From Pseudomonadota bacterium (lineage in GTDB: Bacteria > Pseudomonadota > Gammaproteobacteria > Acidiferrobacterales > UBA6901): a stretch of DNA of 64,000 bases. Positions 44,909-61,762 of this stretch are shown here, one piece after another (the first letter of the stretch is position 1; the number at the start of each line of letters is the position of its first letter). The stretch covers positions 1,715 to 65,714 of the forward strand of contig JAJYEE010000010.1 of assembly GCA_021790335.1 (NCBI GenBank), read 5' to 3'. A model generated the notes under the pieces. That model did no database searches. It was not told the origin of the DNA and saw nothing but the letters and a program-made list of their open reading frames with translations. The position numbers were made by a program, and so were the translations under genes.

Positions 44909-46651
44909 TCACCGTGTCTGGCGACACAGATCGCGGCTGCGGTACATGTCCTCGATCTCCCTGGCAAAGCGCTCCTCGATCCTGTTCCGGCGCAGCTTGA
45001 GCGTCGGCGTGAGCAGGTCATTCTCCACCGTCCACGCTTCGGTAATGCGCGCGATGTGATATATCCGTGCGTACCCGGGGAAATTCCGCAGCTGGGCGTT
45101 GGCGCGCTCGCACAGCGCACGTTCGTCAGCAAGCCCGCTCACCACTAGAAGTCCGAGGTGCGGGCGGCCTTCACCCACCACCATCACCTGCTGGAAGACC
45201 GGATCGAGCGCAATCGCCTGCTCGGCATCCGCTGGCGGAATCTTTTCCCCATTGCTGAGCACGATGATTTCCTTGGCGCGTCCGACAACGTAAATCCGCC
45301 CTCCCTCGATGCGCACCATATCGCCGGTATGCAGCCAGCCTTCGGCGTCGATTACGGCGCCGGTGGCGGCCGGATTGTTCCAGTAGCCGAGCATCACCTC
45401 CGGCCCGCGCACCAGCAGCTCGCCATCGCCGAGGGTCCTGATCTCAACCCCGGTGACCGGCCGGCCGACCGACGTGGGGTCGTTATCCTCAAGACGGTTG
45501 CAACTCACGACGGGCGCAAACTCGGTAAGCCCATATCCCTGCAGCAAGGGAAGTCCGAGCCCGAGAAACGTGCGCGACAACTGCGGCGCGAGCGCAGCGG
45601 CGCCGGAGACAATCAGGCGCATGCGCCCCCCCAGCCGGCGGCGCAGCTTGCGCGCAACAAGCACATCGAGCAGAGGCCAAAGGAACGTGTCGCCCGGCCG
45701 TGCCTGGCCGGCGAAGCGCCTCCACCCGACATTCACTGCCAGGTCAAAAAGGCGTCGGCGCAAGGAACCGGGCGGCAGGCTCTCCTGCATGCGGGCATAG
45801 ATGCGTTCGAAGATTCGCGGTACACACACCAGCATCGTTGGACGCTGACTCAGGAGATCCTCGGGAAGTTCCGTGATGCCGCGCGCGAAAACGGTACTGG
45901 CGCCGATACACATCGACAGGTAGTAGCCGACGGTACGCTCGAACATATGCGAAAGCGGCAGAAACGAAAGAAAGACGTCTTCGGCATTCATGATCGGCAC
46001 GGCATCGAGACTGGCGCTGACGTTGCTCGCGATATTGCGGTGGCTCAGCATGACGCCTTTCGGCCGCCCCGTCGTGCCCGATGTGTAAACCAGAGTTGCC
46101 AGGTCTGTGGCACGCGCAGGACCTTCATCCAGGCTTTCGCCTCGCGCCGGAAGCCATGCTGATGCAGCGACCGCTGTCCCATCGCCCGCCGGCGCATCGT
46201 TGATGCAGACTACACGAACAAGCGTCGGAACCTGAGCACGCAGATCGCGCCACAACCCGCCATCCTCGAGCAAAAGCAGGCGCACGCCGGCGTCATTCAT
46301 GCACCACGCCATGTTCTCAGCCCTATCGTTATAGAACAGCGGCACGACAACCAGCCCGAGGCTGAGAGCTGCCTGATCGAACAGGATCCATTCGATCCGG
46401 TTGCGCATGCACAGCGCCACGCGGTCTCCGGCCTTGAGACCCTCGCTGCGCAGTGCCGCTCGCCAGCGCCCTGCCTCGCGTCCCGCCTGCGCCCATTCCA
46501 TGTCCTGCCATCGGCCGCGACCCGCATCCCTGGGCATACCGGGATCAGGGTGATACTGACGAAAGGCCCGGCCGTTCGGCGTATCGTGAATACGGGCCAA
46601 GAACAGCTGCGGCAGCGTTGTGTGCTCGGTTATCGGAACACGCATGGTCAT
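44909..46651 (-). CDS. AMP-dependent long-chain acyl-CoA synthetase (FadD/FadK-like)
   Basis: It has the AMP-binding signature LVYTSGTTGRPKGVMLSHRNI plus GYGLTE and TGDM motifs. ATG 46651 overlaps the stop of the upstream gene (ATGA). Confidence 0.9.
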   Translation of the reverse strand: MTMRVPITEHTTLPQLFLARIHDTPNGRAFRQYHPDPGMPRDAGRGRWQDMEWAQAGREAGRWRAALRSEGLKAGDRVALCMRNRIEWILFDQAALSLGLVVVPLFYNDRAENMAWCMNDAGVRLLLLEDGGLWRDLRAQVPTLVRVVCINDAPAGDGTAVAASAWLPARGESLDEGPARATDLATLVYTSGTTGRPKGVMLSHRNIASNVSASLDAVPIMNAEDVFLSFLPLSHMFERTVGYYLSMCIGASTVFARGITELPEDLLSQRPTMLVCVPRIFERIYARMQESLPPGSLRRRLFDLAVNVGWRRFAGQARPGDTFLWPLLDVLVARKLRRRLGGRMRLIVSGAAALAPQLSRTFLGLGLPLLQGYGLTEFAPVVSCNRLEDNDPTSVGRPVTGVEIRTLGDGELLVRGPEVMLGYWNNPAATGAVIDAEGWLHTGDMVRIEGGRIYVVGRAKEIIVLSNGEKIPPADAEQAIALDPVFQQVMVVGEGRPHLGLLVVSGLADERALCERANAQLRNFPGYARIYHIARITEAWTVENDLLTPTLKLRRNRIEERFAREIEDMYRSRDLCRQTR

Positions 46652-48693
46652 CCCCGCAATGCAGCGCGGCGCGCAAACAGGCCGGCCCTGCCCCATGCCT
46701 CATCGGGGGCAAATCGCGGCCCGTACTCCTGCGCTAGCCGCTGCAGACTGCTGGCGATGCCGACCTCGCCCAGCGCCTCGGCATAGCGCATGGGTCCACC
46801 CAGATAGGGCGCAAACCCGGTCCCGTAAACCATTCCCGCGTCCACCGCATCAGGATCACTGACCACCCCCTCGCGCAGGCAGGCAGCTGCCTCATTAAGC
46901 ATGCGCAGAATCAGCCGCTCGGTGACCGGGGCATCGCTGTGCCCGTGGACCGCCCGGCGGCGAGGCTTTCCTGATTTGTCATAGGAATAGAAGCCCCGTC
47001 CAGACTTTTTTCCAAGATCCCCGCGCGCGACGGCTTCGCGCAGGCGTTCCGGCACCGCGATACCAAGTGGACCGGAAAGCATCTCCGCCACTGACAGGCA
47101 GATATCGAGGCCCACTGTGTCGGCCAGCAACACCGGGCCCATGGGCATACCGAAGTGCGTCGCCGCCTGATCGATCTCCTCGATCGCAATTCCCTCCTGA
47201 GCCAGCGTCATTGCCTCGATGAGATACGGCATCAGCACGCGATTGACCAGAAAGCCCGGGCTGCTCCGGACATCCAAAGGAAGACGCTCGATTGCGACGG
47301 TGAATGCCCTGGCGCGTTCCAGGGATGATTCACTGGTCTGCTTTCCTCGCACGATCTCGACGAGCTGCATTTGCGCCACCGGATTGAAGAAATGCAGTCC
47401 GACCAGACGTGACGGATCCCTGAGCACCTCGCCTAGGACCTCCAAAGGAATACTTGAGGTGTTGGTCGCCAGAAGCGTGTCCGGACGTACCATGCTTTCG
47501 ACCGATCGAAGCAGTTCGCGCTTGGCATCCGCCTTCTCGACTATAGCCTCGATAACGAGATCGGCACGATGCAGACCATTGCCATTTGCATCAGGCATCA
47601 ACCGGTCCATCGCATCCTGAATGGCCACCGGTTTCTTAAGCTTCTTCTTGTAGAAGCCGTGGGCCTTCTTGACCGCCCGGGCGAGCGCTTCCGTCTGCGG
47701 ATCCTGCAGACTCACGCGAAAGCCCTTGAACGCGGCCCAGATGGCTATGTCCGCACCCATGGTACCGGCGCCGATCACGTGCAGGTGCGCGACGCCATGC
47801 GAGTGGCGGCGCCCGTGACGCTTCAGCTCCTCGCCAAGCAGAAATATGCTGACCAGGTTGCGGCTCGTACGCCCGACCATCAGCTCACCCAACGAAAGCG
47901 CTTCCTCGTCCTGCGAAGGATTGCGGCGCCACAGGTCAAGCGCCCGGTACGGAGCCGGATAATGATCGGGGTTCGCCTTTTTCCGCAGCTGCCGCTGCAG
48001 CAGGCGCGTGACCGGCTTGCGCAGCATCGGCCACGACGGCACGCGTTTCCACCAGGCTGCGCGCCTTCGACGTGAGTGGCGCGCAATGAACGCGTGCGCC
48101 GCGTGCATCAGGTGACGATCAGGCACGATTTCGTCAACAAGACCAAGCGCGAGTGCCTGGCGGGAACTCACCGTGCGGCCCGTCAGGATGAGATCAAGCG
48201 CCGCTAGATCGCCGATCAGCGGCGGAAGCCGCACGGTTCCGGCGAAACCCGGATGGATTCCGAGCCGTACTTCCGGCAGGCCCAGCCGCGTTGCGTCGTC
48301 TTCGCGCGCGATACGATAGGTGCAGGCGAGCGCCAGCTCAAGCCCGCCACCCAGGCAATTGCCATGAATCAGCGCGACGCTGGGGAATGGCAGGCCCGCA
48401 AGTCGATTGAACACGGCCTGCCCCGCCCGCGCCAGGGCGGCGGCCTGCACCGAGTCACCTATCTTCTGGAACTCGTTGACATCTGCGCCTACGATGAAGC
48501 CGTTGACCTTTGCCGAACGAATGATTAAGCCATGGAGCGGACGGACTTCGATTTGTCCCAGGATGCGGTCGAATTCTTCCAGCACCACGGACGACAGAGC
48601 GTTGGCGCGCTGTCCGACCACATCGAGCGTCAGCACGACGGTTTCGTCGGTTTCCTCGATGCGCCAATTGGCCGCGTCAATATCCATGTTCAT
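46648..48693 (-). CDS. fused enoyl-CoA hydratase / 3-hydroxyacyl-CoA dehydrogenase (FadB/FadJ-like)
   Basis: It has an N-terminal crotonase fold (IHGNCLGGGLELALAC) and a C-terminal NAD-binding HAD domain (HVIGAGTMGADIA). ATG 48693 overlaps the thiolase stop (ATGA). Confidence 0.92.
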   Translation of the reverse strand: MNMDIDAANWRIEETDETVVLTLDVVGQRANALSSVVLEEFDRILGQIEVRPLHGLIIRSAKVNGFIVGADVNEFQKIGDSVQAAALARAGQAVFNRLAGLPFPSVALIHGNCLGGGLELALACTYRIAREDDATRLGLPEVRLGIHPGFAGTVRLPPLIGDLAALDLILTGRTVSSRQALALGLVDEIVPDRHLMHAAHAFIARHSRRRRAAWWKRVPSWPMLRKPVTRLLQRQLRKKANPDHYPAPYRALDLWRRNPSQDEEALSLGELMVGRTSRNLVSIFLLGEELKRHGRRHSHGVAHLHVIGAGTMGADIAIWAAFKGFRVSLQDPQTEALARAVKKAHGFYKKKLKKPVAIQDAMDRLMPDANGNGLHRADLVIEAIVEKADAKRELLRSVESMVRPDTLLATNTSSIPLEVLGEVLRDPSRLVGLHFFNPVAQMQLVEIVRGKQTSESSLERARAFTVAIERLPLDVRSSPGFLVNRVLMPYLIEAMTLAQEGIAIEEIDQAATHFGMPMGPVLLADTVGLDICLSVAEMLSGPLGIAVPERLREAVARGDLGKKSGRGFYSYDKSGKPRRRAVHGHSDAPVTERLILRMLNEAAACLREGVVSDPDAVDAGMVYGTGFAPYLGGPMRYAEALGEVGIASSLQRLAQEYGPRFAPDEAWGRAGLFARRAALRG

Positions 48694-49988
48694 GCTGAGT
48701 CCCCTTTCGCGCGCACCAGCATCGCACCGCCCTGGCCGCCGCCGATGCAAAGAGTTGCAATGCCGAGCCCGCCCCCGTGACGCCGCAGCGAACGCAGCAG
48801 GTGCAGAACGATCCGCGCACCGCTAGCGCCGACGGGATGGCCGATCGCGACCGCGCCGCCTTCAGTGTTGAGGCGCGCCGGATCTACCGGACCTATCGGA
48901 GCGTCAAGACCGAGTTCGTCGTGGGCGTATTCGGGGCTTGCCCATGCAGCCTGGCAGGCGAGGACCTGAGCGGCAAACGCTTCGTTGAGTTCCATCTTTC
49001 GGATATCGTCCATGCTAAGCGCGAACCGGGCCAACAATCTTGCCACGGCATGCACTGGTCCAAGACCCATCTGGCTCGGATCGACGCCCGCCCATTCTTC
49101 GCCCAAGAGTTCGCCCAGCACCGTCAGGCCGTAGCGTTGCACGGCAGCCTCGCTCGCCAGCATGAGCATAGCCGCACCGTCGGTCACTTGCGAGCTGTTG
49201 CCCGAGGTCACCGAGCCGTACTTGCGGTCGAACACCGGTCTGAGCTTGGCTAGCTTGTCCATGTCGGTATCCCTGCGCAGTCCATTATCCTCCTCATAAA
49301 CACGGCCACGGGAATCGAATAGCGGAACGATCTCATCGTGCATCTGTCCGGCGCCATAGGCTGCCGCCAGTCGCTGATGGCTGCCGAGCGCATAGGCGTC
49401 CTGCTCCGTGCGCGTAATGCCGAATCGATGTGCGACGATTTCCGCGGTCTGGCCCATATTGAGTTTCACCAGCGGGTCGGTCAGCCCCAGCAGCAGCGTG
49501 TATACCGGGGCCAGATGTGACAGCCGGAAGCCGGCCACGGCACGCGCACGCGCAACGGGATTACGTGCACGCAGGACCCCAGCGAGCCAGCCCGTCATGG
49601 CGGTATTCCACTGGATAGGCGCGCGGCTCATCGCCTCGGTGCCGCCGGCGAGAACCAGATGCGCCCGCCCCTGCGCGATGCGCTCGCGCGCGCACGCCAG
49701 CGCCTGCAGCCCGGATGCGCAGTTGCGCTGGACCGTGAAGGCGGGGACGGTTTTGCCGCAGCCCAGGCGCAATCCGATAATGCGTGCGACGTTGGCTTCA
49801 TCCGGCGCCGGAATGACGCAGCCGACGATGATTTCGTCGACCTGTTCCGGCGCAAACGGCGCGCGCGCAAGCACTGGCCGGGCGGCGGCCACCGCCAGAT
49901 CGGCCGCACTGAACTCATTTGGCTGGCCGCGGGTTTTCAGAAACGGCGTGCGTAACCCATCGATGACGTAAACCTTTGCATCCGACAT
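48690..49988 (-). CDS. acetyl-CoA C-acyltransferase (thiolase, FadA/FadI-like)
   Basis: 432 aa. It has VQRNCASGLQA (the active-site Cys block) and, at the C-terminus, NTEGGAVAIGHPVGASGARI...CIGGGQG. AGGAGA lies 6 nt upstream of the ATG. Confidence 0.93.
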   Translation of the reverse strand: MSDAKVYVIDGLRTPFLKTRGQPNEFSAADLAVAAARPVLARAPFAPEQVDEIIVGCVIPAPDEANVARIIGLRLGCGKTVPAFTVQRNCASGLQALACARERIAQGRAHLVLAGGTEAMSRAPIQWNTAMTGWLAGVLRARNPVARARAVAGFRLSHLAPVYTLLLGLTDPLVKLNMGQTAEIVAHRFGITRTEQDAYALGSHQRLAAAYGAGQMHDEIVPLFDSRGRVYEEDNGLRRDTDMDKLAKLRPVFDRKYGSVTSGNSSQVTDGAAMLMLASEAAVQRYGLTVLGELLGEEWAGVDPSQMGLGPVHAVARLLARFALSMDDIRKMELNEAFAAQVLACQAAWASPEYAHDELGLDAPIGPVDPARLNTEGGAVAIGHPVGASGARIVLHLLRSLRRHGGGLGIATLCIGGGQGGAMLVRAKGDSA

Positions 49989-50043: not shown

Positions 50044-53000
50044 TCAGTCGTCCCCGGCAGATTGCAGAGTGCCATCAGCACCCAGAAATCGCACCAGCGC
50101 AGGGATCCATTCCTCAAGGTCGCCGACACAGGCGATGACATGCGGTCCCGGATTCTGGTGCGACCAGCTGAAAATCGAAGCATCCGGATCGCGGTTGATC
50201 GCGATCACTATGGCACCCGGATCGATCCAACCCATGTGCTGTGGCGCCCCAGAGACGCCCAGCGCCAGCAGCAACGCCGGCGCCACCGGAACACCGGTCT
50301 GACCGATCTGCCGGTCGACCGGCAGAAGCTTGAGCTCTTGGGTCACCTTGCGCGTCGCCCCCAGCTCCACGGCCTCGCCGCTAAGACGTTCGAGCACCGC
50401 GCACAGAGGCGGAACGAGTTCTTTGTAATTGGATTCATTCGTAACGCCGAGTCCTACGTCTACGATGAACTTGGCCGTCGTCAGACCTCCTCCCGTAGCC
50501 ACGCGCACCTGAGCACGCCCTAGCGCCGAACTTCGCAGGTGCGCCTCGGGCAGCGGCGTGACCGGGAGCGGCAGGGATGCTGGAGCCGCCAGTGGCGGCG
50601 CGTTGCATGAACGGCCGATGATCAGCAGCGCAGCGTCGGGCAGCGGGTAATCCGCCTCGTAACCATCGCGGGAACAGGTCACAACGTCGGATGTGACCGC
50701 AATTACCTCATCGAACAACGCCACTCCGAGACGCGCTGCCAGCGCCGCGCCGAGCGCGCGATGTTCCGCGCTCAACACAATGCGGTGCGGTACGCCGATG
50801 TGCTCGGCCAGCAGGTCGGCCAGCGCCGCATGCAGCACCGCGCCGTGCAGCGGCAGCTGCCACAGACCTGCGAACCCAGGCTGGCCAAGCAGCAGCGATA
50901 CCGGGGGAAAGATCCGTCCGGCAGGAAGCCAAGCGAGTACGCCGAACCCGGCGTCCAGCCCGACCAGCGCGCGCAGTGCCGATTCGCGACTGGCGCCGGC
51001 CAGCACGTCCGCCGGGGTCAACCACAGATTGTGGCCGGCCAATGACAGCCGTGCCAACCGGGTCGCCGCCGGATCATCGGGGACGACACCCGCATTGAAC
51101 CGGCCCCTGAGCCAGGCTGCAAGCTCACCGACGTCCGCAAAGCGCTGCGGCAGATCGGCGGCCGGCGGCGGGGCCGGCAGTCGCACAGCCGTCGGCAGCG
51201 GATACCCAACGGCCTCGGCGCACGGCAGATCGGTGCGCAGTGCCACGAGCCAATCCCGCACTCCGTAACGACCGGCGCGGCCGCCCGGCTTCGGATCCCA
51301 CACGAATGCGATACGGCGCCGGTCGCTGATGAATCTCCGCCGCCAGGCAGCATCTTCCACCCACAAACCATGCGCAACATCGCCCAGGGCGGTCGCGCCG
51401 TCCACGAGATCGACACCAAGAAGCTGGCCCATGTTCGCGGCAAAGCCGCGGTCGCGGGGGCTCGACGCACCACATCCGAACGCCCATCGCCGCACCTGCG
51501 GCCAGGCTTGCAGGATGGAGGAAGCCGCGCCCGCCATTTCGGCGGCGCCAGCCGGCTGGGCAATGTGCAGAACCTCGGCACCGGCCGCCTGCAGACGGCG
51601 CAGTGCGTCGGCGGTGTCGCGCGGCGCGATCGCGGCGACTTTCACGTGCATGGCCGGGAACCGGTCCGACCACAACAGCAGGCGGTCGAGCACCGCCAGA
51701 TCGGCCGTATCCCATCCGGCCCACTCGAGACCACGGGGCCCGGGTTCGAAACGGCTGCGCAACACGGTCGCCCATTCTCCCGACAGTGCGCCCACTGCCA
51801 TGGGGCCATCATCCACCCTCGCCGGCACGGCCAGCGCTGCGCGTGCCAGGGCCAGGCCGGCGTCGCTGGGACCCGTATCACCATGCTCGGCCTGCTCGAA
51901 ATCCGAACGCACCATCCCGGCCACATCCTGCACGTGCTGCGCGATGCTGGCTTCACTCGCACGCAAACGCGCAATGTTCTCCCGGTCCACGGGGTCGCCA
52001 TGGGATTCCAGCAAACGGGTGCGCTCGTGCAGTGCCGACCAGCTGTAAAGTTCGGCTACCCAATCGACAACGGGGAACCAGCGGGCCTGCAGATCCGGAT
52101 TCTGCCAGACCCCGGCACCAAGCTCTGCGACACGACCCGCTGCAAATTCGCGGAACTTCTGGAGTGCGGCATCGAGCGGCGCATTGTCGGCAACCTGCAT
52201 TGCCTGTTCGCGCAGCAGGTTCGGCAGGTCCTTGAGCACAAGGAAGCGCTGGACCTCGTTCGTGCCTTCGTAGATGTTCAGGATACGGATGTCGCGCCGC
52301 CATTTTTCCAGCATCTGTTCGCGTGCGGCGGCATCGGGGCCATAGAGTCTCTCCAGCCAGCCAAGGATACGGTGCGCGCCCTCGGAGGCGAGGTACTTGG
52401 AAAGCGCCGCCTCAATGCGAAAATCTCCGCGCTGCAGGTCGGACCGGTCCATGAGGCCCACCAGGCGCGCCGCCAGGGTCTGCAGGCGGTCGCACTCTGC
52501 CTGAGCTGCGGCGTGCAAGGCCGGGTCCTTCTGCCACACTGTCAGAAACTCCCGCAACACGCGCTCGGCGAGCGTTGCACAGCTCATGACCAGGCCGCCA
52601 CGCCCAACACTCAGCGTCTCCAGTGCGTTCACCTGCCCATGACCCGTGAAGCCGATCACCTGATCCGCGCTTACCCGCACGCGGTCCAGAGTCAGCTCGT
52701 TGGTCGGCGAAGCACGCTGGCCGAGCTTGTTTTCGTTCGGACCGATGTGCAACCCCTCGGAGCGGCGTTCCAGCATAAAGCCGGTTTCCCCGGTTGCGGT
52801 CTGGGCATACAGACAGTAACGATCCGCGATTGAACCGTTGGTGATCCACATCTTGCTTCCCGACAGTTCCCAGTAACGATAGAAGGCCTTGCCATTTCTG
52901 ACGACAACGGTGCCGATGTCGTCATAGGGATATGTGTGCCCGCCGACGCAAATCCGGCGGCGGCCACTGTTACGCGCCAGATCCCAGTCACTGTCATCGA

Positions 53001-56000
53001 GGCTGGCCAGGCTGCCGTCCGGCATGCGAAAGAACGCGCGGCGCGACTCGAATACCAGACGCCGCGCATCCAGCAGACAACGCGGTTTTTCGGTGCCGAC
53101 GACAGTGAAGCGATACAGCCCCTGGTCGTCCGCATGCGCCTGCACCTCACGAAGGACCGCGCGCGCCTGAATGCCCCCGGTGTCGGAGCCGGCGGCCGGC
53201 TCCGTGAGCGCAAAGGCACTGATCTGTCCGCAGGCAAGGAACTGCAGAAAGCGCTCGTGTGCGCTCTCGCGCGCATCGATTTCCTGCTGTTCGTCTCTGA
53301 GCCGGGCGCGCACCGCCGGCAGGCTGTCCCGGCATCGTCGCAGGCAATCCCCGAAGGTCCCGAGATCATGCGCTTTCGCCGCTTGCATGGTCTGGCGCAT
53401 GAGCTCGAGAAAATCGCGGGTCAGGTACTTGAGTGTCGAACCGGAAAAGAGAAACATGCGCTGAACCCGTCCGCCGAGGCTCTCCAGCTTGCGCCGCAGG
53501 GGCTTCGGCTCCGGACGCTCGACCATTTCGATAAGTCGATCCAGGTCCTCCTTTAATTCCCGCCATCCGGACGCATCGGCCAGACACGCGTCGATCTCGT
53601 GGCGCAGCCGCGGCAGATCCTTGTCGCGGCCGAGCAACACCGGCATGGTGCCGATGCTGGTGCTGGCCATGATCAGCAAACCGGTGGCGGTATCCTTTTC
53701 TCCCATGCACAGATTGGTGAGCACCGAGTACTGGGCCTTGCTCCAGCCCTTTCCCCCGAGACTTGCGGGCACAACCGTCGCAAAGGCGTTGAATTCACGC
53801 AGCAGCTGAATGTCGCCTTCCGGCATTCCGTGCAGGAAGTCGATGTAACGACCATAGGGTTCGCCCCTGCGCGGGCTGCGAAAACCGCGGCGCAGCAGCC
53901 GCAGAACGTCGGCGCGTGTACGGCGCAGCAACGGGTCCCGACGGAAATGCTCAGGGACGAGCAGCTTGTCGGGCGCGAGCAGGTTTCCGCTCAGGAAGCC
54001 ACCGCTTTGGTAGGTGAACTTCCTGTATGCTTCCCACATCAGCGGAAGGCGCGGGCGCAGAGGCTTGTGCCGCAGTGGTTCGGCCCGCAGCGGGCGCAAT
54101 GTGCGCAGGCACCGGCGCGCGCTCGCGAACTGCAGCAGGCTATCGGCCACCACATAGTCTATGTCCGACTCCGGCAGCGTCTGCGCGAGCAGGCGCATGC
54201 CAAAGTCGGGATCTTCGCTCGCAAGCGCGCGCGATCCCGGCCATTGGCTGAACAGGATCGCGTCGCGGTAGCGGGGCGCGAGGATGTCCTCTTCAGAATA
54301 TGCCATGCCTCCGAAAATCTGTCCGGTGAGCCAGGGCACGCCATCCATCCACGGCCCCATGCACTCGCGCACAAGCAGCAGTACCCGCTCCGGCTCCCGC
54401 TGGCACCAGCGGCGCGCCAGGCCGAGAAGCGCATACGCGTACTCCACACCCGCCAGCATCTGCTTGACCACGCCGAACTTGGCGATGCTCTCGCGCCCCT
54501 CGCTGTCCCGCAGTTCGCCGCGGAACTGGACCCGGGTAGCGGCATATTCCAGTGCACGACGGCGCAGCACCGCCGCCTGGCCGAGAGCCAGCGCAACGCT
54601 CATTTCGGCAATCTCGGCGGTTGCGGAAAACCCGCTGACATCGTCCGCGACGCGCCTGCGCACCGGCTGGGCGGCGTCGGCGCCGGCACCGTGCGCAGCG
54701 ACTTCTCCGACAGATCTGCTGACGCCATGCAGGTCGACAAAGCGCTCGACGACCCCTGGCAACCAATTCGAATTTCCGTCTTCCTCGCGCCACAATGGCG
54801 CGGCCAGAACATCCGTGATCGTGTGTCCGGCGTAAGCCTCCGCCAAGTAGTGTCCGGCGGCCATCCACGCCAGCGCGCTCGACCAGCCTGCCAGCCATTC
54901 GACGGCGGCAGCACGATGTGCGCGCGCGGCGACGATCCAGTCACGCAAGGCACGCCGGTCGGAAAGCTCCCAGGGCGCGTGCCCGAGCAATTTGAGTCGC
55001 TCCGACGGAAAATCGGTCTTCAACCGCTCCCACACACGCTGATTGCGCTGCAGGGCGTGCGTGCCGTTGTCGCGCACGCCCTGCCCGTCGGCCGGCAACG
55101 CCCGCGCCTGCTCCAGCAGGGCGTGCACTTCGGTCTCCATCCAACCGTAGGCGTGGCGCTGCAACCACGCGTCCATGCGCGCGACTTTCGGTCGCGTCTG
55201 CTCGTTGTGAGGAATCGCCCTCAACAGTTTTTCCCAGGCACGCGGCCATTCCCCGGCAACCATCGCCGGTCGGGCGCGCAGCGACTGATACAGGCGCTGC
55301 CAGATGCTGCGCTCGGCAACGCTCAGAGGTAACGGCTCGGCCGAGACAAGTTCCAGCGCAGAAGTCACGGAAGAATCCGGGCCGCTTCGAGTATTTCCCG
55401 GAACCCGATAGGCAAATCGGTGATTGCTGTTACGATTCCAGTCCACCCCAGGCACCGTCACGCGGCAGGACTCACACTTGATGCAGTTTTCGTGCTGGCT
55501 CGCAACCCCGCCCAGCTGACCGACGAGACTGTAGACCTCCGCCGGGCAGACATTGCGCAGCTGCTGCGCCGCTGCGCCGAGACCCAAGGGTACGGTCACA
55601 TGCCGTGGGTCGGGTCGATAGCGCACGAGCGGAGCGATCCATGTTGTCGGGGAAGCAGCGCTTCGGTGGGCTTCGCCCCAGTCAAGCCGACTGCGCGTGC
55701 TATCGTCATAACGATGGTAAGGCCGCAGGAGCAGTTCGCGCAGCGGCAGGCGGCAGGCTTTGTACGCTGCGAGATCGCCGAGCAGCGACGCACCCCCGGT
55801 GAGCGCACCCAGCCCCAGGCCGGCAATGCGTGGCAGTGCCTGCGGCAGGCGCACCATGCTGCGCCAGACCAACGCCACGCGATCGGCGAACGCCGGCAAA
55901 CGCCGGCCGTAGAAATGACCGATCGCCTGGCCAGCCAGCGCCAGCAAAGGATCGTCCTGTACCGCGACCGGCACCGGCGCACTGCCGGCACGCGAGACCA

Positions 56001-57363
56001 GGAACCGCACATGCAGTGGCGGTGGCGCCGTCCGGAACACGCGCCAACGCGGGCCAAGTCCGCGCGCAAGGAGCAAGGCCTGGGCCGCATCGCTGCGCAA
56101 ACGGGTGAGCTGCACACCCAGGGCCCGGCGCCGCTGGGCGCGGGCGACGCCGGGCGGCAGCCGCTCGGCGTCGATCATCTGGCCCAGCATGGCTGGCAGG
56201 TGGTCGAACAGGGCCGGTCCACCGTGAATTGCCCCTGGCCAGCGCCGAATGAGTTCAGCATTGCGAAAATCGGTGGTGCTGCGCAGTGTTTCGGCGTACT
56301 CATGCTGCAGTTCCGCGCGCGTGTAATCAGAACCCCTCTGGCGTATGCGCAATACCGCATCGGCGAAAGTCAGCGCACTGGTGACGGCCGGGGCGATGAA
56401 ATTCGGGTACGGCACCTCCTGTCCGAGGCCAAGACCACCGCCGCCAACGGCCAGTCCTGCACGTACCCACTCCGGCGTCTCGTCGATTCCCCCGGAGCGG
56501 ATTACCTTGGCACCGTAGGCGATCTGCTGCGCACCCGCGAGGTAGGATGTGATCACCGGAATGTTGCGCACACGTTCAAACAAATGCGGATGATCGGCAA
56601 CGCCGGCCTGGGCCAGCCGATCAAGCGGGAGCACCAGCCCCAGTGAAAGCGTGTCGTGGTTCGTATAAAGGAAAGCCGTCATGTTGAGTCGCACCGGGCG
56701 ACCGGCGAGCTGGCCGTTACGCAGCAGCCACTCCTGCGCCATGCCTTCGCCCGGCCCCAGCTCGAAGCGTTTCTCGATTTCCGGCGACGGCAGGCGGAAG
56801 AGTGCCTTGATGCCTTGGGCATAATGCGGAAGCTTCGTCCGTTCCAAGCCTTCGCGCGCCAGCAATCCGGCCGCGTCGCCTTCGGCGAGGAACACCACGG
56901 AAGCGTCCACCGGCCCGCGGTCGGTATCGACGCCCACCACACGGTCGCCGTGATACCGCAGACCTGTCGCCGTAGTGGCGGTAATCAGCGTGGCGCCGAA
57001 ATCAATGGCGCGGCTCGCCAGCCAGCGATCGAGCTTAGGGCGCAGAACGGTCCATGCTTCGCCGTAATCATTGCCGGCATGGGCCCGGGCCTCGAAGCCT
57101 GCGGCATTGATACCGTCATGCAGATACAGGCTGCGCGCGACGATGCGCCGCTCCTTCGGGGCTTGCTGCCACAGCTCTCGCCCCAGAACATCCTCGCGCA
57201 GCAGGCCGTCAGCGTGATAGACGCAGCCGGACCAGTTCTCCGCGCCTGCATACTCCGCGCCCTCGAGCACCATCACCGAAACACCCGCGCGAACCAGCCG
57301 CAGCGCTGCCGCGATCCCAGCGGGTCCAGCGCCTATGATGAGGACTTCGGGCGAGGAGGGCAT
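50044..57363 (-). CDS. giant 2439-aa fusion protein: FixC-like ETF:quinone oxidoreductase + FixX-like ferredoxin + degenerate ACAD-like module + acyl-CoA dehydrogenase + ETF-beta-like + ETF-alpha
   Basis: One uninterrupted ORF. Domains read from the translation:
- aa 1-395 (nt 56179..57363): FixC-like. LIIGAGPAGIAAAL and FLYTNHDTLSLGLV align with E. coli FixC FLYTNENTLSLGLV.
- aa 585-656 (nt 55396..55611): FixX-like. CPAEVY...ENCIKCESCR...FAYRVPG compares with E. coli FixX CPAGLY...GCLECGTCR...EFRYG.
- aa ~905-1048 (nt 54220..54651): ACAD C-terminal-like helical module lacking the catalytic Glu.
- aa ~1110-1715 (nt 52219..54036): ACAD with AFALTEPAAGSD, SKMWITNG and IYEGTNEVQR.
- aa ~1860-2060 (nt 51184..51786): ETF-beta-like. 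HVKVAAIAPRDTADALRRLQAAGAEVLHIA.
- aa ~2100-2425 (nt 50089..51066): ETF-alpha. GATRKV...QIGQTGVPVAPALLLALGVSGAPQHMGWIDPGAIVIAINRDPDASIF. Confidence 0.85.
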   Translation of the reverse strand: MPSSPEVLIIGAGPAGIAAALRLVRAGVSVMVLEGAEYAGAENWSGCVYHADGLLREDVLGRELWQQAPKERRIVARSLYLHDGINAAGFEARAHAGNDYGEAWTVLRPKLDRWLASRAIDFGATLITATTATGLRYHGDRVVGVDTDRGPVDASVVFLAEGDAAGLLAREGLERTKLPHYAQGIKALFRLPSPEIEKRFELGPGEGMAQEWLLRNGQLAGRPVRLNMTAFLYTNHDTLSLGLVLPLDRLAQAGVADHPHLFERVRNIPVITSYLAGAQQIAYGAKVIRSGGIDETPEWVRAGLAVGGGGLGLGQEVPYPNFIAPAVTSALTFADAVLRIRQRGSDYTRAELQHEYAETLRSTTDFRNAELIRRWPGAIHGGPALFDHLPAMLGQMIDAERLPPGVARAQRRRALGVQLTRLRSDAAQALLLARGLGPRWRVFRTAPPPLHVRFLVSRAGSAPVPVAVQDDPLLALAGQAIGHFYGRRLPAFADRVALVWRSMVRLPQALPRIAGLGLGALTGGASLLGDLAAYKACRLPLRELLLRPYHRYDDSTRSRLDWGEAHRSAASPTTWIAPLVRYRPDPRHVTVPLGLGAAAQQLRNVCPAEVYSLVGQLGGVASQHENCIKCESCRVTVPGVDWNRNSNHRFAYRVPGNTRSGPDSSVTSALELVSAEPLPLSVAERSIWQRLYQSLRARPAMVAGEWPRAWEKLLRAIPHNEQTRPKVARMDAWLQRHAYGWMETEVHALLEQARALPADGQGVRDNGTHALQRNQRVWERLKTDFPSERLKLLGHAPWELSDRRALRDWIVAARAHRAAAVEWLAGWSSALAWMAAGHYLAEAYAGHTITDVLAAPLWREEDGNSNWLPGVVERFVDLHGVSRSVGEVAAHGAGADAAQPVRRRVADDVSGFSATAEIAEMSVALALGQAAVLRRRALEYAATRVQFRGELRDSEGRESIAKFGVVKQMLAGVEYAYALLGLARRWCQREPERVLLLVRECMGPWMDGVPWLTGQIFGGMAYSEEDILAPRYRDAILFSQWPGSRALASEDPDFGMRLLAQTLPESDIDYVVADSLLQFASARRCLRTLRPLRAEPLRHKPLRPRLPLMWEAYRKFTYQSGGFLSGNLLAPDKLLVPEHFRRDPLLRRTRADVLRLLRRGFRSPRRGEPYGRYIDFLHGMPEGDIQLLREFNAFATVVPASLGGKGWSKAQYSVLTNLCMGEKDTATGLLIMASTSIGTMPVLLGRDKDLPRLRHEIDACLADASGWRELKEDLDRLIEMVERPEPKPLRRKLESLGGRVQRMFLFSGSTLKYLTRDFLELMRQTMQAAKAHDLGTFGDCLRRCRDSLPAVRARLRDEQQEIDARESAHERFLQFLACGQISAFALTEPAAGSDTGGIQARAVLREVQAHADDQGLYRFTVVGTEKPRCLLDARRLVFESRRAFFRMPDGSLASLDDSDWDLARNSGRRRICVGGHTYPYDDIGTVVVRNGKAFYRYWELSGSKMWITNGSIADRYCLYAQTATGETGFMLERRSEGLHIGPNENKLGQRASPTNELTLDRVRVSADQVIGFTGHGQVNALETLSVGRGGLVMSCATLAERVLREFLTVWQKDPALHAAAQAECDRLQTLAARLVGLMDRSDLQRGDFRIEAALSKYLASEGAHRILGWLERLYGPDAAAREQMLEKWRRDIRILNIYEGTNEVQRFLVLKDLPNLLREQAMQVADNAPLDAALQKFREFAAGRVAELGAGVWQNPDLQARWFPVVDWVAELYSWSALHERTRLLESHGDPVDRENIARLRASEASIAQHVQDVAGMVRSDFEQAEHGDTGPSDAGLALARAALAVPARVDDGPMAVGALSGEWATVLRSRFEPGPRGLEWAGWDTADLAVLDRLLLWSDRFPAMHVKVAAIAPRDTADALRRLQAAGAEVLHIAQPAGAAEMAGAASSILQAWPQVRRWAFGCGASSPRDRGFAANMGQLLGVDLVDGATALGDVAHGLWVEDAAWRRRFISDRRRIAFVWDPKPGGRAGRYGVRDWLVALRTDLPCAEAVGYPLPTAVRLPAPPPAADLPQRFADVGELAAWLRGRFNAGVVPDDPAATRLARLSLAGHNLWLTPADVLAGASRESALRALVGLDAGFGVLAWLPAGRIFPPVSLLLGQPGFAGLWQLPLHGAVLHAALADLLAEHIGVPHRIVLSAEHRALGAALAARLGVALFDEVIAVTSDVVTCSRDGYEADYPLPDAALLIIGRSCNAPPLAAPASLPLPVTPLPEAHLRSSALGRAQVRVATGGGLTTAKFIVDVGLGVTNESNYKELVPPLCAVLERLSGEAVELGATRKVTQELKLLPVDRQIGQTGVPVAPALLLALGVSGAPQHMGWIDPGAIVIAINRDPDASIFSWSHQNPGPHVIACVGDLEEWIPALVRFLGADGTLQSAGDD

Positions 57364-57840: not shown

Positions 57841-58392
57841 TCAACCGGAACCGGTCACCGGCCTCCCGGATGAAATCGCCGGACGCGGAGCGTGCGGCAG
57901 CAGATGCATCAGGAGTGCCTGCAGCCTCGGATTCAGCCAGTTCCTGCCGCCGACCAGGACATCGACCACGCGTCCGTGCGGATCAATGATGTAACTTGTC
58001 GGCAATCCGATCATCCCCCACTTCCTGCTGACGGTGGAATTGCGGTCCAACAGGACTGGGTATTTTATTTTCATTTGCTCCACAAAGGGCGCAACCGAGC
58101 TCCAATTCTCGCCGACATCAACGCCGAGAATCACGAATCCTCTGTTCTTGAGCTTTTCGTAGGTGCGCTCCATGGAAGGAATTTCCATGCGGCAGGGCGG
58201 ACACCATGTCGCCCAAAAATTCACGATAATGAGTTTGCCGCGATAATCCGAGAAATGCCGTATCTTGCCGTTAAGATCCTTGAGGGAGAAATTCGGAGCA
58301 AAGTGCCCCGGAGCGGCGGCTGAATTGGCATAGGCCAGCGGTACGGCGGTGAGCCAGGCGATAACTGCCGCAGCAACGAAGCGATTAATCAA
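57841..58392 (-). CDS. TlpA/redoxin-family periplasmic thiol:disulfide oxidoreductase (second copy)
   Basis: It has the active site NFWATWCPPCRMEIP. The likely start is TTG 58392 ((L/M)INRFVAAAVIAWLTAVPLAYA, a signal peptide), which overlaps the upstream stop (TTGA). The ORF track extends to 58476. Confidence 0.8.
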   Translation of the reverse strand: MINRFVAAAVIAWLTAVPLAYANSAAAPGHFAPNFSLKDLNGKIRHFSDYRGKLIIVNFWATWCPPCRMEIPSMERTYEKLKNRGFVILGVDVGENWSSVAPFVEQMKIKYPVLLDRNSTVSRKWGMIGLPTSYIIDPHGRVVDVLVGGRNWLNPRLQALLMHLLPHAPRPAISSGRPVTGSG

Positions 58393-59015
58393 GGCAATTT
58401 CCCCATCGATGGATGCGCCGCAGCGCATAGCACGCGGCGCACCGTTGTCTGCTTCGGCACGCCGTTGTCCGTCCAACGGATCCGCAGATCGAAGTGCCGG
58501 CCTGCACCAAGATTGGCGGTAATCATCCCCTGCAGCCAGTCGCCTGGGCCGAGCCGATCCACGGTCGGTAGCAAGGCATAGCGGAAGGCGATCTGCGCCG
58601 GGCGCGAGACCCGTTCCTCACGCCATTCTTTGCGCCAGTCGGCTTCAAGTCGCAGTGGCTGCTCATGGCCGCTGGTGATCACACGCCAATCGGCGAGATT
58701 GAACCGGATCATCGCGGAAGAGGACCGGTTCTTTACGACGACCGCCATGACACAGGCGTCGGCAATCTGCCGTGAAGCGGCGGGCGCGAAGCCGCGCCCC
58801 TGGAAAAACGCCTCGGTCAGGTCGATCGGCCGCTGGACGAGTTCGACCGCCAGTCCGTCGGGCTGGGCCTCCGACCACTCGGGTGGCGTCGATCGGGACT
58901 GCGGTCCGGAAGCGTTCGCTGCCGCCGTCCAGCCTGCAGCCAAAACCAGCGGCAGAACCATCCACGCCATGCTGCAGCGGTGCAAGCCGCGGTTTCCGCG
59001 CGATACAGTGGTCAT
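58389..59015 (-). CDS. hypothetical secreted protein (no family recognised)
   Basis: The ORF track gives 58389..59357, but its 5' third overlaps the ArsR gene. A plausible start is ATG 59015 (MTTVSRGNRGLHRCSMAWMVLPLVLAAGWTAAANA, Sec-type signal), or alternatively ATG 58970. The mature part is rich in Trp/Arg (WRKEWREERV, RIRWTDNG). I recognise no motif. Confidence 0.5.
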   Translation of the reverse strand: MTTVSRGNRGLHRCSMAWMVLPLVLAAGWTAAANASGPQSRSTPPEWSEAQPDGLAVELVQRPIDLTEAFFQGRGFAPAASRQIADACVMAVVVKNRSSSAMIRFNLADWRVITSGHEQPLRLEADWRKEWREERVSRPAQIAFRYALLPTVDRLGPGDWLQGMITANLGAGRHFDLRIRWTDNGVPKQTTVRRVLCAAAHPSMGKLP

Positions 59016-59094
59016 GCGCCCGGCGCGGCCAAAAAAAATCCGCGTGCGCCAGCCTCTTCGAACCCGGATGTCTTCATGGACAAAACATTTCCCG

Positions 59095-59769
59095 TCAGTC
59101 GCGGGAACCGGCGGTTTCGACTGGCAGTCCTGACTCGCGCCATTCGGGAAATCCATCCTGCAACCGTCGTGCCCGATACCCCGCCCGGCGCAGTCGCTCC
59201 ACCGCCTCGAATGCCAACACGCAGTGTGGACCCCGGCAGTAGGCGACGATCTCCTGATCCTGCGGCAGGTCCCGCAACCGATGCTCAAGATCCTTGATCG
59301 GCAGGTTGATGGCTCCCGGCACATGGCCCGAGGCGTACTCCTCCTGCGGGCGAACATCCATCACTGTCACCAGTCCGCGGCGCACCCGGTCGAGAAGCTC
59401 TGCCCGAGGAATCGGCTCCAGATCGTCCTTGACGGTCAGATAGCTGCGCACCAGGCGATCAACCTCGGCTAGGTGAGTTTCCGCGAGTTTGCGCATGCTT
59501 GCAAGCAGCCGGACGACCTCGTCGTCGGTAATGCAATAGAAAACGTGCTGTCCTTCCTTGTGGGCTTTCACGAGGCCGCTTTGGCGCAGTATCTGGAGAT
59601 GCTGCGAAGCGTTGGCCACGGAAATGTCTGTAAGTCTCGCCAACGCATCGACGGTGCGCTCTCCTTGGGCAAGATACTCGAGCAGCTCCAGACGATTGCC
59701 GTGACAGACAGCTTTGCCGATGCGTGCAATTTCGCGATAGAGCTGTTGCTTAAGCGAGGGGCTTGACAT
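59095..59769 (-). CDS. ArsR/SmtB-family transcriptional regulator fused to a rhodanese domain
   Basis: It has an N-terminal winged HTH (HGNRLELLEYLAQGERTVDALARLTDISVANASQHLQILRQSGLV...VFYCI) and a C-terminal rhodanese domain with the active-site loop YCRGPHC. Confidence 0.88.
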   Translation of the reverse strand: MSSPSLKQQLYREIARIGKAVCHGNRLELLEYLAQGERTVDALARLTDISVANASQHLQILRQSGLVKAHKEGQHVFYCITDDEVVRLLASMRKLAETHLAEVDRLVRSYLTVKDDLEPIPRAELLDRVRRGLVTVMDVRPQEEYASGHVPGAINLPIKDLEHRLRDLPQDQEIVAYCRGPHCVLAFEAVERLRRAGYRARRLQDGFPEWRESGLPVETAGSRD

Positions 59770-59873: not shown

Positions 59874-60725
59874 ATGCTTCAAGCGGTCGTGCAGCACGCC
59901 ATGGTTCTGCGGTTAGCCATGTTTTTCGGGATCCTTATAGTCATGATCCTGCTGGAACTTGCCCTGCCGCGTCGTGTACTTTCCTTGCCCCGGCTGCGCC
60001 GCTGGGGGAGCAACCTCGGCGTCGTGTTCCTCAACAGTGCGTTGCTGCGCCTGCTGCTGCCGGTGGCTGCCACCGGATTTGCGCTGCTGGCGGCCGACCG
60101 CAGCTGGGGATTGTTCAACATCCTTGCCGTTCGTCCGTGGGTCGCCGTTCTTGCCTCGGTCATCCTGCTGGATTTTGCGATCTATCTCCAGCACATCATG
60201 TTCCATGCGGTTCCGGCGCTGTGGCGGCTGCACCGCATGCACCATGCCGATCTGGATTTCGACGTCACCACCGGCGCTCGGTTTCATCCGATCGAGATCC
60301 TGCTCTCGATGCTGATCAAGTTTGCGGTGATTGCACTTATCGGCGCTCCGGCGGCCGCCGTGGTGATTTTTGAAGTGGTGCTTAACGCCACGGCCATGTT
60401 CAATCATGGCAATGTGCGGCTGCCACTTGGCCTGGACCGGGTGCTGCGTCTGCTGATCGTCACGCCGGACATGCATCGGGTACACCATTCTATCGAAGAC
60501 CATGAGGCCAACAGCAATTTTGGCTTTAACCTCTCCCTGTGGGACAGGCTGCTTGGCACCTACAAGAATCAGCCCGACGCCGGTCACGACGGCATGACCA
60601 TCGGTATTCGCGATTACCGCGAGCCGAAACTCGTAAATGATCTGCCGGGCATGCTGATCCTGCCCTTTCTCGGGCGTATCCGTGGCTACGCCATCAACCG
60701 TCGCGAATGGAGCCGGCCGTCGTGA
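59874..60725 (+). CDS. fatty acid hydroxylase / sterol desaturase family membrane protein
   Basis: It is polytopic with histidine boxes (HIMFH, HRMHH, MHRVHHS), characteristic of the di-iron fatty acid hydroxylase superfamily. Confidence 0.85.
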   Translation: MLQAVVQHAMVLRLAMFFGILIVMILLELALPRRVLSLPRLRRWGSNLGVVFLNSALLRLLLPVAATGFALLAADRSWGLFNILAVRPWVAVLASVILLDFAIYLQHIMFHAVPALWRLHRMHHADLDFDVTTGARFHPIEILLSMLIKFAVIALIGAPAAAVVIFEVVLNATAMFNHGNVRLPLGLDRVLRLLIVTPDMHRVHHSIEDHEANSNFGFNLSLWDRLLGTYKNQPDAGHDGMTIGIRDYREPKLVNDLPGMLILPFLGRIRGYAINRREWSRPS

Positions 60726-61762
60726 AACGCCAGACAATCTCGCGCCTTGTGATATCCGCTGTGCTCGCCGTCGGGATCATCGCAGCGTTTTTCAATCGGG
60801 GCGGGCTCAACGCCGCCGCGCTGCAGGCACAGGTTGCCGGTGCCGGTGCCCTCGGGCCGCTTCTTTTCATCGCGGCCTATGCTGCCGCCACGGTGCTGTT
60901 CCTGCCGGGTGCGGTGATCACGCTGGCCGGTGGCGCACTTTTCGGTCCAGTGTGGGGCACCCTGTACAGTCTCACCGGCGCCACCGCAGGCGCCACGATT
61001 GCGTTCCTGGTTGCCCGCTACCTCGCGTCCGATTGGGCGCATCGCCGGGCTGGCGGCTGGACCAAGTCGATCATCGACGGCGTTGAAAGGGAGGGCTGGC
61101 GATTCATCGCATTCGTGCGGCTGGTACCGCTGTTTCCGTTTAACCTGCTCAATTATGCGTTGGGTCTCACCCGCATCCGGCTGCTCTCCTATATAGTCGG
61201 CTCCTTCATATTCATGCTGCCGGGCGCGTTCGCCTACACCTACCTTGGCTACGCGGGGCGCGAGGCGGCGGCGGGCGGCGGCGGTCTGGTCCGCAAGGGA
61301 CTGCTCGCGCTCTCCCTGCTTGCCATGGTCGCGTTCCTGCCAGGACTCATCAAGCGTGTGTGCCGCAAGCCCGGCACGGGCACCATTTCCAGCGACGAAC
61401 TCAAGAAGCGCCTTGAGGGCAATGAGGGCCTGGTGGTACTCGACGTACGCTCGCCCGCCGACTATACCGGTGAGCTGGGGCACATCGCCGGCTCGCTCAA
61501 CATCCCGCTCGCAGAACTGGCACATCGCCTGACCGAGATCGAACTGCAGCGTGGACATCCCCTTGCCGTCATATGCCGCACCAACCGTATGTCCGGCAAG
61601 GCGGTCGAACTGCTGCGGTCGGCGGGCTTCGCCCAGGCGCTGCTGGTAAGCGATGGGATGGCCGGGTGGAAGAGCCGGGGGTTCGATACTGTACGCGAAG
61701 TTACGGCCGTCGGTTCAGAGACACGTCCGGAAAGCACCGGCTCGTTGGCGAAATCGGACTAA
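60707..61762 (+). CDS. TVP38/TMEM64 (DedA-related) membrane protein fused to a C-terminal rhodanese domain
   Basis: It has the TVP38 core (LFLPGAVITLAGGALFGPVWGTLYSLTGATAGATIAFLVARYL...FRLVPLFPFNLLNYALG). The C-terminal rhodanese reads VVLDVRSPADYTGELGHIAGSLNIP...VICRTNRMSG, with a CRxxRxS active-site loop. It overlaps the upstream gene by 19 nt. Confidence 0.85.
   Translation: MEPAVVKRQTISRLVISAVLAVGIIAAFFNRGGLNAAALQAQVAGAGALGPLLFIAAYAAATVLFLPGAVITLAGGALFGPVWGTLYSLTGATAGATIAFLVARYLASDWAHRRAGGWTKSIIDGVEREGWRFIAFVRLVPLFPFNLLNYALGLTRIRLLSYIVGSFIFMLPGAFAYTYLGYAGREAAAGGGGLVRKGLLALSLLAMVAFLPGLIKRVCRKPGTGTISSDELKKRLEGNEGLVVLDVRSPADYTGELGHIAGSLNIPLAELAHRLTEIELQRGHPLAVICRTNRMSGKAVELLRSAGFAQALLVSDGMAGWKSRGFDTVREVTAVGSETRPESTGSLAKSD

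Follow-up and report, generated by a model that had tools for sequence, protein, structure and literature searches.

A giant fusion protein with FixC, FixX, acyl-CoA dehydrogenase and electron transfer flavoprotein modules heads a beta-oxidation operon in an Acidiferrobacterales bacterium

The stretch of DNA analysed here (the window, 64,000 nucleotides; all coordinates are positions in it, and amino acid numbers are those of the giant protein) stems from a gammaproteobacterium of the Acidiferrobacterales. On the minus strand, at 50044..57363, the listing of open reading frames (ORFs) contains a single gene with an ATG start that encodes a protein of 2439 amino acids with a computed mass of 267 kDa and an isoelectric point of 8.6. 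This gene heads an operon with the genes for a thiolase, a FadB-type enzyme and an acyl-CoA synthetase. The protein combines six parts in one chain: a FixC-type flavoprotein, a FixX-type ferredoxin, a degenerate and a complete acyl-CoA dehydrogenase (ACAD), a domain resembling the beta subunit of electron transfer flavoproteins (ETFs), and an ETF-alpha part. The six assignments and their order had been proposed in an earlier reading of the sequence (the original prediction), and they are confirmed by hidden Markov models, profile-profile comparisons and predicted structures. Among the individual models expected there, Acyl-CoA_dh_M, Acyl-CoA_dh_1 and ETF_alpha score above their cutoffs, whereas the FixC models stay below theirs, ETF matches weakly and Fer4_ETF_QO very weakly.

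The giant ORF is genuine and not an assembly artefact. Its translation is free of internal stops, in agreement with the predicted single uninterrupted ORF for a chain of about 265 kDa; the strand, which had not been stated before, is minus. Since the N-terminus, MPSSPEVLIIGAGPAG, lines up with the starts of the homologues, the annotated ATG is credible. The exact protein sequence is recorded from both NCBI and ENA, and all nine members of its 90%-identity cluster, which come from NCBI, ENA and JGI assemblies, are 2439 amino acids long. These members of equal length from independent sources, together with dozens of colinear full-length homologues, exclude a fusion generated by assembly. The chance that the long ORF results from a chimeric assembly or from read-through of separate genes, or that it is a decaying pseudogene, is negligible: Although the giant sequences are known from metagenome assemblies only and one relative in a 'complete' chromosome of a metagenome-assembled genome (MAG) is broken by a stretch of N, different phyla yielded over 50 colinear ORFs that exceed 2250 amino acids, and the catalytic and cofactor-binding residues are invariant across the family. 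The broken relative (locus L060, 9647..14251; CP070823.1, Gemmatimonadota bin113 'chromosome') encodes a 1534-residue ACAD-ETF protein that lacks FixC, FixX and the degenerate ACAD. It was considered as a natural short form and rejected: The run of N (X in the translation) interrupts the gene near its start, so that it provides no evidence of a partial architecture, and the short form probably reflects a gap in the scaffolding.

A word-indexed search found 312 relatives of the giant protein; of the best 120, nearly all have 2300-2800 amino acids and span the query from end to end, with identities down to about 30%. A scan of the GTDB species representatives yielded 75 loci (L001-L075) among the best 80 matches; colinear ORFs of more than 2250 amino acids were recovered from 53 of them, and all 75 are MAGs, with no cultured isolate among them. 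Full-length relatives (2300-2900 amino acids) are present in at least seven bacterial lineages, in each case as MAGs: the carriers are Acidiferrobacterales and other Gammaproteobacteria, Nitrospirota (including Leptospirillia), Verrucomicrobiota, Acidobacteriota, Planctomycetota (Gemmataceae), Gemmatimonadota and one member of the Alcaligenaceae. An exhaustive HMMER search with the family-specific region of amino acids 400-1130 picked out no more than 73 clusters (50% identity) from 1.84 billion representatives, and nearly all of these are giants or pieces of them. These results show that the architecture is rare but phylogenetically widespread, and that it is under selection.

The N-terminal part of the protein would interact with quinone. 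The FixC-type FAD (flavin adenine dinucleotide)/quinone oxidoreductase module (amino acids 1-400; 56164..57363, minus strand) carries a GAGPAG Rossmann motif at residues 11-16 that is invariant in the family alignment. The family profile matches EtfC of Thermotoga (7koe_C) in the PDB with an E value of 2.8e-54 and covers its residues 1-396, and hhalign aligns the module with E. coli FixC at a probability of 99.9% (E 2.5e-37, 32% identity over 379 columns). With the NCBIfam models of the FixC/YdiS subfamily the module reaches 144 bits (E 6e-42), far below the cutoffs of 466-610, and it is therefore a distant member rather than an orthologue of E. coli FixC/YdiS. At amino acids 304-314 (about 56422..56454, minus strand) the family has a GGxxxG motif, with G307 and G308 invariant, where E. 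coli FixC has GDAAG. This motif resembles mitochondrial ETF:quinone oxidoreductase (ETF-QO) rather than FixC, and the FixC-like module may stand between these two types. Hydropathy analysis predicted no transmembrane helix in the giant protein, which is consistent with a possible monotopic membrane association of the FixC/ETF-QO type.

A poorly conserved linker (amino acids 401-574; 55642..56163, minus strand; 1% of columns conserved) follows, for which no match was found in Pfam or the PDB; its stretch rich in G, A and L at amino acids 513-531 lies under the transmembrane threshold in the hydropathy analysis. The FixX-type ferredoxin module (amino acids 575-660; 55384..55641, minus strand) contains one CPAxxY...CxxCxxC motif, in this protein CPAEVY...C-IK-C-ES-C, with Cys606, Cys627, Cys630, Cys633, P607 and Y611 invariant. 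It aligns with E. coli FixX (hhalign probability 88.5%, E 2.7e-6) and gives the very weak Pfam Fer4_ETF_QO match mentioned above. As these four are the only clustered cysteines of the giant protein, it would bind one [4Fe-4S] cluster.

By fold and motifs, the fourth module (amino acids 1130-1720; 52204..53976, minus strand) appears to be a catalytically complete ACAD. It has the motifs TEPxAGSD (1387-1394), KMWITN (1504-1509) and YEGTNE with Glu1699, a residue that aligns with the FEGT/YEGT position of the very-long-chain acyl-CoA dehydrogenase VLCAD. The Pfam models Acyl-CoA_dh_M (52.5 bits, cutoff 33.3) and Acyl-CoA_dh_1 (59.4 bits, cutoff 22.4) match above their cutoffs, the profile aligns with VLCAD at an E value of 3e-57, including the N domain, and Foldseek matched the predicted structure to VLCAD/ACAD9 (E 2e-14) and to many ACADs with TM(target) of 0.65-0.78. 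In VLCAD and ACAD9, an additional helical domain of about 180 amino acids follows the ACAD core. A helical C-terminal extension of this type is joined to the module (amino acids 1721-1855; 51799..52203, minus strand): the alignment of the hidden Markov model runs to VLCAD residue 517, and Foldseek aligned 743-809 columns with VLCAD chains of 554-589 residues (TM(target) 0.68-0.74). Two insertions interrupt this active ACAD module. One (amino acids 1251-1370; 53254..53613, minus strand) places a bundle of five helices between N domain and beta domain, and the other (amino acids 1406-1495; 52879..53148, minus strand) adds a beta segment to the middle domain. Both are family-specific, modelled with high confidence and weakly conserved, and they may serve as docking surfaces for the ETF or FixC modules.

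The module in front of it (amino acids 680-1050; 54214..55326, minus strand) has the layout alpha, short beta, alpha, and its relationship to ACADs was revealed only by a dedicated profile of 47 sequences covering this region. With this profile, 23 of the first 24 matches in the PDB are ACADs, the best being 1buc_A (E 2.6e-7), and the alignment spans residues 68-353 of 2dvl_A. The full-length family profile did not report the module in its search of the PDB, an internal hhalign comparison of amino acids 660-1130 with 1130-1860 was not significant (probability 0.1%), and a single-sequence library search returned no free-standing relatives of the module; likewise, only the active ACAD module was returned in the alignment of the family profile with E. 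coli CaiA (probability 96.5%). The degenerate module has WPGS at the position of YEGT and no equivalent of the catalytic Glu, of TEPxAGSD or of WITN, which makes it a putative non-catalytic pseudo-ACAD. Its invariant columns are RVQF (R944, Q946, F947) and GQxFGG (G1014, Q1015, G1018, G1019), which correspond in the alignment to RVQFG and VQIFGG of butyryl-CoA dehydrogenase.

The two ACAD modules show a complementary decay: The degenerate one keeps RVQF and GQxFGG, and the active one, as judged from its alignment with VLCAD, has lost both the RxQFG and the QxxGG positions. The same division of labour is known from the alpha2beta2 ACADs of mycobacteria: their alpha subunit provides the catalytic Glu and holds the substrate and the isoalloxazine ring, whereas the ADP-ribose part of FAD is bound by the beta subunit (PMC11153573). 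Because of the complementary motif loss and of this precedent, the two modules would pair within the chain as a pseudo-dimer that has a single FAD and a single catalytic site. An AlphaFold 2 model of amino acids 655-1854, in which the degenerate module consists of helices, a short sheet and again helices, is confident and compact (pLDDT 87.7, pTM 0.86), which is consistent with a pseudo-dimer.

The C-terminal part is an ETF in a single chain, in the order B-A, rather than a heterodimer of subunits. The ETF-beta-like domain with its arm (amino acids ~1860-2105; 51049..51786, minus strand) is strongly diverged and lacks a conserved nucleotide-binding loop. A single-sequence scan gave no Pfam match for this segment of the window protein, and only distant members pass the PF01012 cutoff in the corresponding region. 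The family profile nevertheless aligns it with E. coli FixA (hhalign probability 97%, E 1e-10), an alignment in which the GxQxxDxDxxQxG-like loop is not conserved, and Foldseek matched the model (pLDDT 86.9) to ETF-beta chains with E values of 1e-7 to 1e-5 and TM(target) of 0.45-0.57. Next comes ETF-alpha domain I (amino acids ~2106-2275; 50539..51048, minus strand), a scaffold with a weak Pfam ETF match at 2175-2235, followed by the FAD-carrying head, ETF-alpha domain II (amino acids ~2276-2439; 50047..50538, minus strand), for which Pfam ETF_alpha scores well above its cutoff (57.9 bits against 27, E 1e-15). For ETF-alpha as a whole, the family profile covers residues 24-332 of the human protein, hhalign gives E. 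coli FixB a probability of 99% (E 5e-18), and Foldseek matched full-length ETF-alpha chains at an E value of 1e-16. All invariant ETF residues lie within the head domain, where R2338, T2356, SGAPQH (2371-2376) and N2390 are invariant or nearly so.

This uneven pattern extends over the whole protein. We measured conservation as the share of columns that are at least 90% conserved across 50 members, and it is greatest at the cofactor-binding places. The values are 41-46% in the ACAD middle domain, 30% in the ACAD C domain, 26% in FixC, 21% each in FixX and the ETF-alpha head, and 16% in the C domain of the pseudo-ACAD, and they fall to 0.4% (1 of 246 columns) in the ETF-beta-like domain and 0% (0 of 170) in ETF-alpha domain I. 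Moreover, the four FixX cysteines, TEPxAGSD, KMWITN and YEGTNE with Glu1699 of the active ACAD, and SGAPQH, R and T of ETF-alpha are invariant in 25-76 diverse members. The base of an ETF holds the AMP site in canonical ETFs and the second FAD and NADH site in bifurcating ones. The unconserved base of the giant protein and its single Fe-S motif argue against electron bifurcation in the manner of FixABCX and suggest that the base is a scaffold and hinge.

The operon extends downstream of the giant gene on the minus strand. It comprises a FadA-type thiolase (48690..49988; Pfam Thiolase_N, Thiolase_C), a FadB-type enoyl-CoA hydratase/3-hydroxyacyl-CoA dehydrogenase (46648..48750; ECH_1, 3HCDH_N, 3HCDH) and a FadD-type AMP-forming acyl-CoA synthetase (44909..46696; AMP-binding, AMP-binding_C_3). 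As listed, fadB (TTG start) shares 61 bases with the gene before it, and fadD (ATG start) shares 49; translation of the two probably begins at later start codons, or they are coupled translationally to the genes before them. Eleven Acidiferrobacterales-type loci, down to 42% identity, keep the giant gene followed by thiolase, fadB and fadD. Thiolase and fadB genes also flank the giant gene in individual loci of Nitrospirota, of Gemmataceae and of unclassified origin; in the Alcaligenaceae locus, fadB is the only one of the two beside it. This conserved operon supports a role in beta-oxidation, and the covalently wired beta-oxidation redox module of the original prediction gains support from the three genes on the same strand and from their conserved order.

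Taken together, the giant protein is probably a self-contained acyl-CoA:quinone oxidoreductase, in which the first step of beta-oxidation would be wired to the respiratory quinone pool. A long-chain acyl-CoA would be dehydrogenated at the VLCAD-like ACAD, with Glu1699 as the base and with one FAD held in the module and completed in trans by RVQF and GQxFGG of the preceding degenerate module, so that there would be a single active site. The electrons would then move singly to the FAD of the ETF-alpha head, for which the beta-like domain and alpha domain I would only be scaffold and hinge. The head would swing to the FixX-type [4Fe-4S] cluster, from which the electrons would reach the FAD of FixC and finally the membrane quinone; the position of the head at the extreme C-terminus fits such a swinging carrier. 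Thiolase, FadB and FadD of the operon would complete the beta-oxidation cycle. Each chain likely carries three FAD and one [4Fe-4S], which refines the two or three flavins and the Fe-S centre assumed before. We infer the electron path and its direction, the cofactor count and the quinone as acceptor from homology. A more far-reaching idea, which we put forward tentatively, is that in these lineages the whole relay from ACAD via ETF to ETF:quinone reductase has been collapsed into one obligately channelled machine, in which the ETF would be a nucleotide-free hinge with a shuttling FAD head, and the ACAD a pseudo-dimer of the alpha/beta kind within the chain, with only one active site.

Several points weigh against an acyl-CoA:quinone oxidoreductase. 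The match to the quinone site is weak (ETFQO_UQ-bd at amino acids 230-288, E 0.004, 18 bits, cutoff 27.7). The role of RxQFG and QxxGG as ADP contacts to the FAD of the partner subunit is our assumption from the structure of the medium-chain acyl-CoA dehydrogenase MCAD, and the geometry of the pseudo-dimer as well as the reach of the ETF head domain are inferred rather than seen in coordinates. In many phyla (other Nitrospirota, Verrucomicrobiota) the giant gene is solitary and has no beta-oxidation neighbours. Moreover, the known cultured relatives of the host clade are chemolithoautotrophs, for which fatty acid catabolism is not an obvious trait. Finally, the direction of electron flow cannot be read from the sequence, and the closest FixC/FixX relatives, FixABCX and YdiQRST of E. 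coli, are tied to reductive reactions.

The last point leads to the idea that the same architecture works in reverse, as an enoyl-CoA reductase that depends on quinol or a low-potential donor and acts in reverse beta-oxidation or in the anaerobic reduction of unsaturated acyl-CoAs, as proposed for CaiA/FixABCX and YdiO/YdiQRST. Such a reaction can in principle run both ways, FixX and the subfamily models of FixC/YdiS are the nearest matches of the N-terminal modules, and E. coli caiA, which adjoins fixABCX, is annotated as crotonobetainyl-CoA reductase. However, acyl-CoA synthetase, thiolase and FadB in the operon are the classical degradative set, and the host lineages are mainly aerobes or microaerophiles of soil and groundwater. 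For most enoyl-CoA couples, quinol is also thermodynamically unfavourable as a donor if bifurcation does not help, and the site that bifurcation would need is not conserved; we therefore regard a reductase as rather unlikely.

Bifurcation itself, to which the original prediction had alluded with its reference to FixABCX, is unlikely for the same reason, the lack of a conserved second nucleotide site in the ETF base. A bifurcating or confurcating enzyme of the EtfABCX or Bcd-EtfAB type would let NADH react at a second FAD in the ETF-beta-like base and split the electrons between a high-potential acceptor, quinone or enoyl-CoA, and ferredoxin or flavodoxin. It is true that FixABCX/EtfABCX (7koe) is the best structural relative of the FixC and ETF parts and that the bifurcating Bcd-Etf and CarCDE complexes are among the matches of the ACAD and ETF parts. 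Yet the base, where the bifurcating FAD and NADH would have to be placed, is the least conserved part of the family, the invariant ETF residues are confined to the head, the beta-like domain of the window protein is below Pfam detection, and there is a single four-cysteine cluster motif. Furthermore, two high-potential exits, ACAD and FixC, in one fusion offer no obvious logic for bifurcation. We judge an enzyme of this type to be quite improbable and retain the acyl-CoA:quinone oxidoreductase as the preferred interpretation.

The neighbourhood of the giant gene differs among its carriers. In the loci L077, L078 and L079, the latter two from Verrucomicrobiota, the gene is monocistronic and has a DUF4139 gene on one side (3/3). 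On the other flank, L078 and L079 have a small ORF, a glycerophosphodiester phosphodiesterase gene and a gene for a GlpD-like DAO/DAO_C dehydrogenase (glycerol-3-phosphate dehydrogenase-like); in L077 this phosphodiesterase/DAO pair is located about 9 kb downstream of the giant gene. This is a phospholipid-breakdown context, unlike the fad operon of the window.

In the window, a gap of 477 bp separates the giant gene from an upstream AhpC/TSA thioredoxin-like gene (57841..58476, minus strand), and scans for promoters and terminators gave background level only. Further upstream are genes for an ArsR-type helix-turn-helix protein fused to a rhodanese domain (59095..59769, minus strand) and for a VTT/DedA membrane domain fused to rhodanese (60707..61762, plus strand). 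The AhpC and ArsR-rhodanese genes hold their place beside the giant gene in its closest relatives, L001, L004 and L007, and this may be a sulfur- or redox-sensing neighbourhood. An ORF of 322 amino acids without a Pfam match (58389..59357, minus strand) overlaps the AhpC-like and ArsR-rhodanese ORFs; tblastn found it in L001, L004 and L007 at 44-84% identity, and it is either a genuine gene or a by-product of the neighbouring frames. Some 1 kb past fadD, with a PrmC-like methyltransferase gene on the opposite strand in between, there is a gene for an NADH:flavin oxidoreductase of the Old Yellow Enzyme family (42751..43818, minus strand), which has the same relative position in L001, L004 and L007. 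Its product may help to process unsaturated acyl-CoAs, or the gene may be unrelated. The remaining window is ordinary chromosome with genes for GlnE, GroEL, DsbD, PurH, PurD and Rho.

All parts of the giant protein belong to known families; what appears to be new is their union in one chain, together with a pseudo-ACAD and an ETF whose base is degenerate. The original prediction had left open whether the full architecture was already catalogued. It is present in the databases, in the relatives from several phyla described above, under generic names such as "FAD-binding protein", "acyl-CoA dehydrogenase family protein" and "electron transfer flavoprotein-quinone oxidoreductase". Full-text literature searches found no published description of the fusion or of its function, and a brief earlier mention in work on the classification of the ETF family is possible. 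The gene may serve as a marker for the capacity to oxidize lipids, so far hidden under "FAD-binding protein", in Acidiferrobacterales-type, Nitrospirota and other uncultured lineages. The complexes of ETF with ACADs and with ETF-QO are transient and dynamic, and this limits structural and kinetic work on the shuttling of the ETF head. If the relay is indeed collapsed into one chain, the protein would represent a naturally occurring ternary complex with fixed stoichiometry, made of partners whose contacts are otherwise only transient, and also a minimal ETF. Such a single-chain 1:1:1 version would be an attractive model for cryo-electron microscopy and kinetics and a compact part for the engineering of fatty acid oxidation. 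As a Rosetta-stone fusion, it also provides independent support for the functional partnership of ACAD, ETF and FixCX that is assumed for the fix and ydi clusters of E. coli. Finally, the complementary decay of the ACAD modules would be a second, independent example of half-site ACADs beside those of mycobacterial steroid catabolism.

The comparison with known systems places the giant protein between several of them. The canonical chain from ACAD via EtfAB to ETF-QO in mitochondria and many bacteria (MCAD:ETF complex 1T9G) uses the same three redox partners, between which electrons are expected to move in the same order, and the catalytic Glu and FAD motifs of the ACAD as well as the residues of the ETF-alpha FAD head are conserved. 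In contrast to this chain, the fusion is one polypeptide, its quinone oxidoreductase is of the split FixC plus FixX type rather than the ETF-QO type, its ETF base has lost the conserved nucleotide-binding features, and its ACAD would be an intrachain pseudo-heterodimer. VLCAD/ACAD9 and bacterial VLCAD-like ACADs (3B96, 8PHF, 3OWA, 2Z1Q) are the best sequence and fold matches for amino acids 1130-1855, including the extra C-terminal helical domain. However, VLCAD is a homodimer with two active sites that keeps RxQFG and QxxGG, whereas the active module of the fusion has lost both motifs and has gained the two large insertions.

In E. coli, ydiO and ydiQRST form a set parallel to caiA and fixABCX. 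The products of caiA and fixABCX belong to the same five protein families as the modules of the fusion (hhalign probabilities 99.9% for FixC, 99% for FixB, 97% for FixA, 88.5% for FixX and 96.5% for CaiA), and the E. coli genes are adjacent; the analogy drawn in the original prediction agrees with the RefSeq annotation. In E. coli the proteins are separate, whereas the fusion has FixC and FixX first and the ETF last, and possesses the extra degenerate ACAD and the VLCAD-type extension. Bifurcating complexes have two [4Fe-4S] clusters in EtfX/FixX. The EtfABCX complex of Thermotoga maritima and FixABCX of Azotobacter (PDB 7KOE) contain the best solved relatives of the FixC module, and the ETF-alpha and ETF-beta parts match as well; unlike these complexes, the fusion has no conserved site for the bifurcating FAD and NADH, a single four-cysteine motif and a fused ACAD.

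A single-chain ETF is known from Sulfolobus acidocaldarius, where SaETF consists of EtfB followed by EtfA (PMC12042025), the same B-A order as in amino acids 1860-2439 of the giant protein. SaETF stands alone, is bifurcating and binds two FADs, whereas the ETF of the fusion, with its degenerate base, makes up the C-terminal quarter of a much larger enzyme. The division of labour seen in the two ACAD modules has its counterparts in ChsE4-ChsE5 (FadE26-27) and ChsE1-ChsE2 (FadE28-29) of Mycobacterium tuberculosis. These mycobacterial alpha2beta2 ACADs were not among the PDB matches of the degenerate-module profile and are not detectably close. In the fusion the two partners are joined, the degenerate one comes first, and the active one is VLCAD-like with a C-terminal extension.

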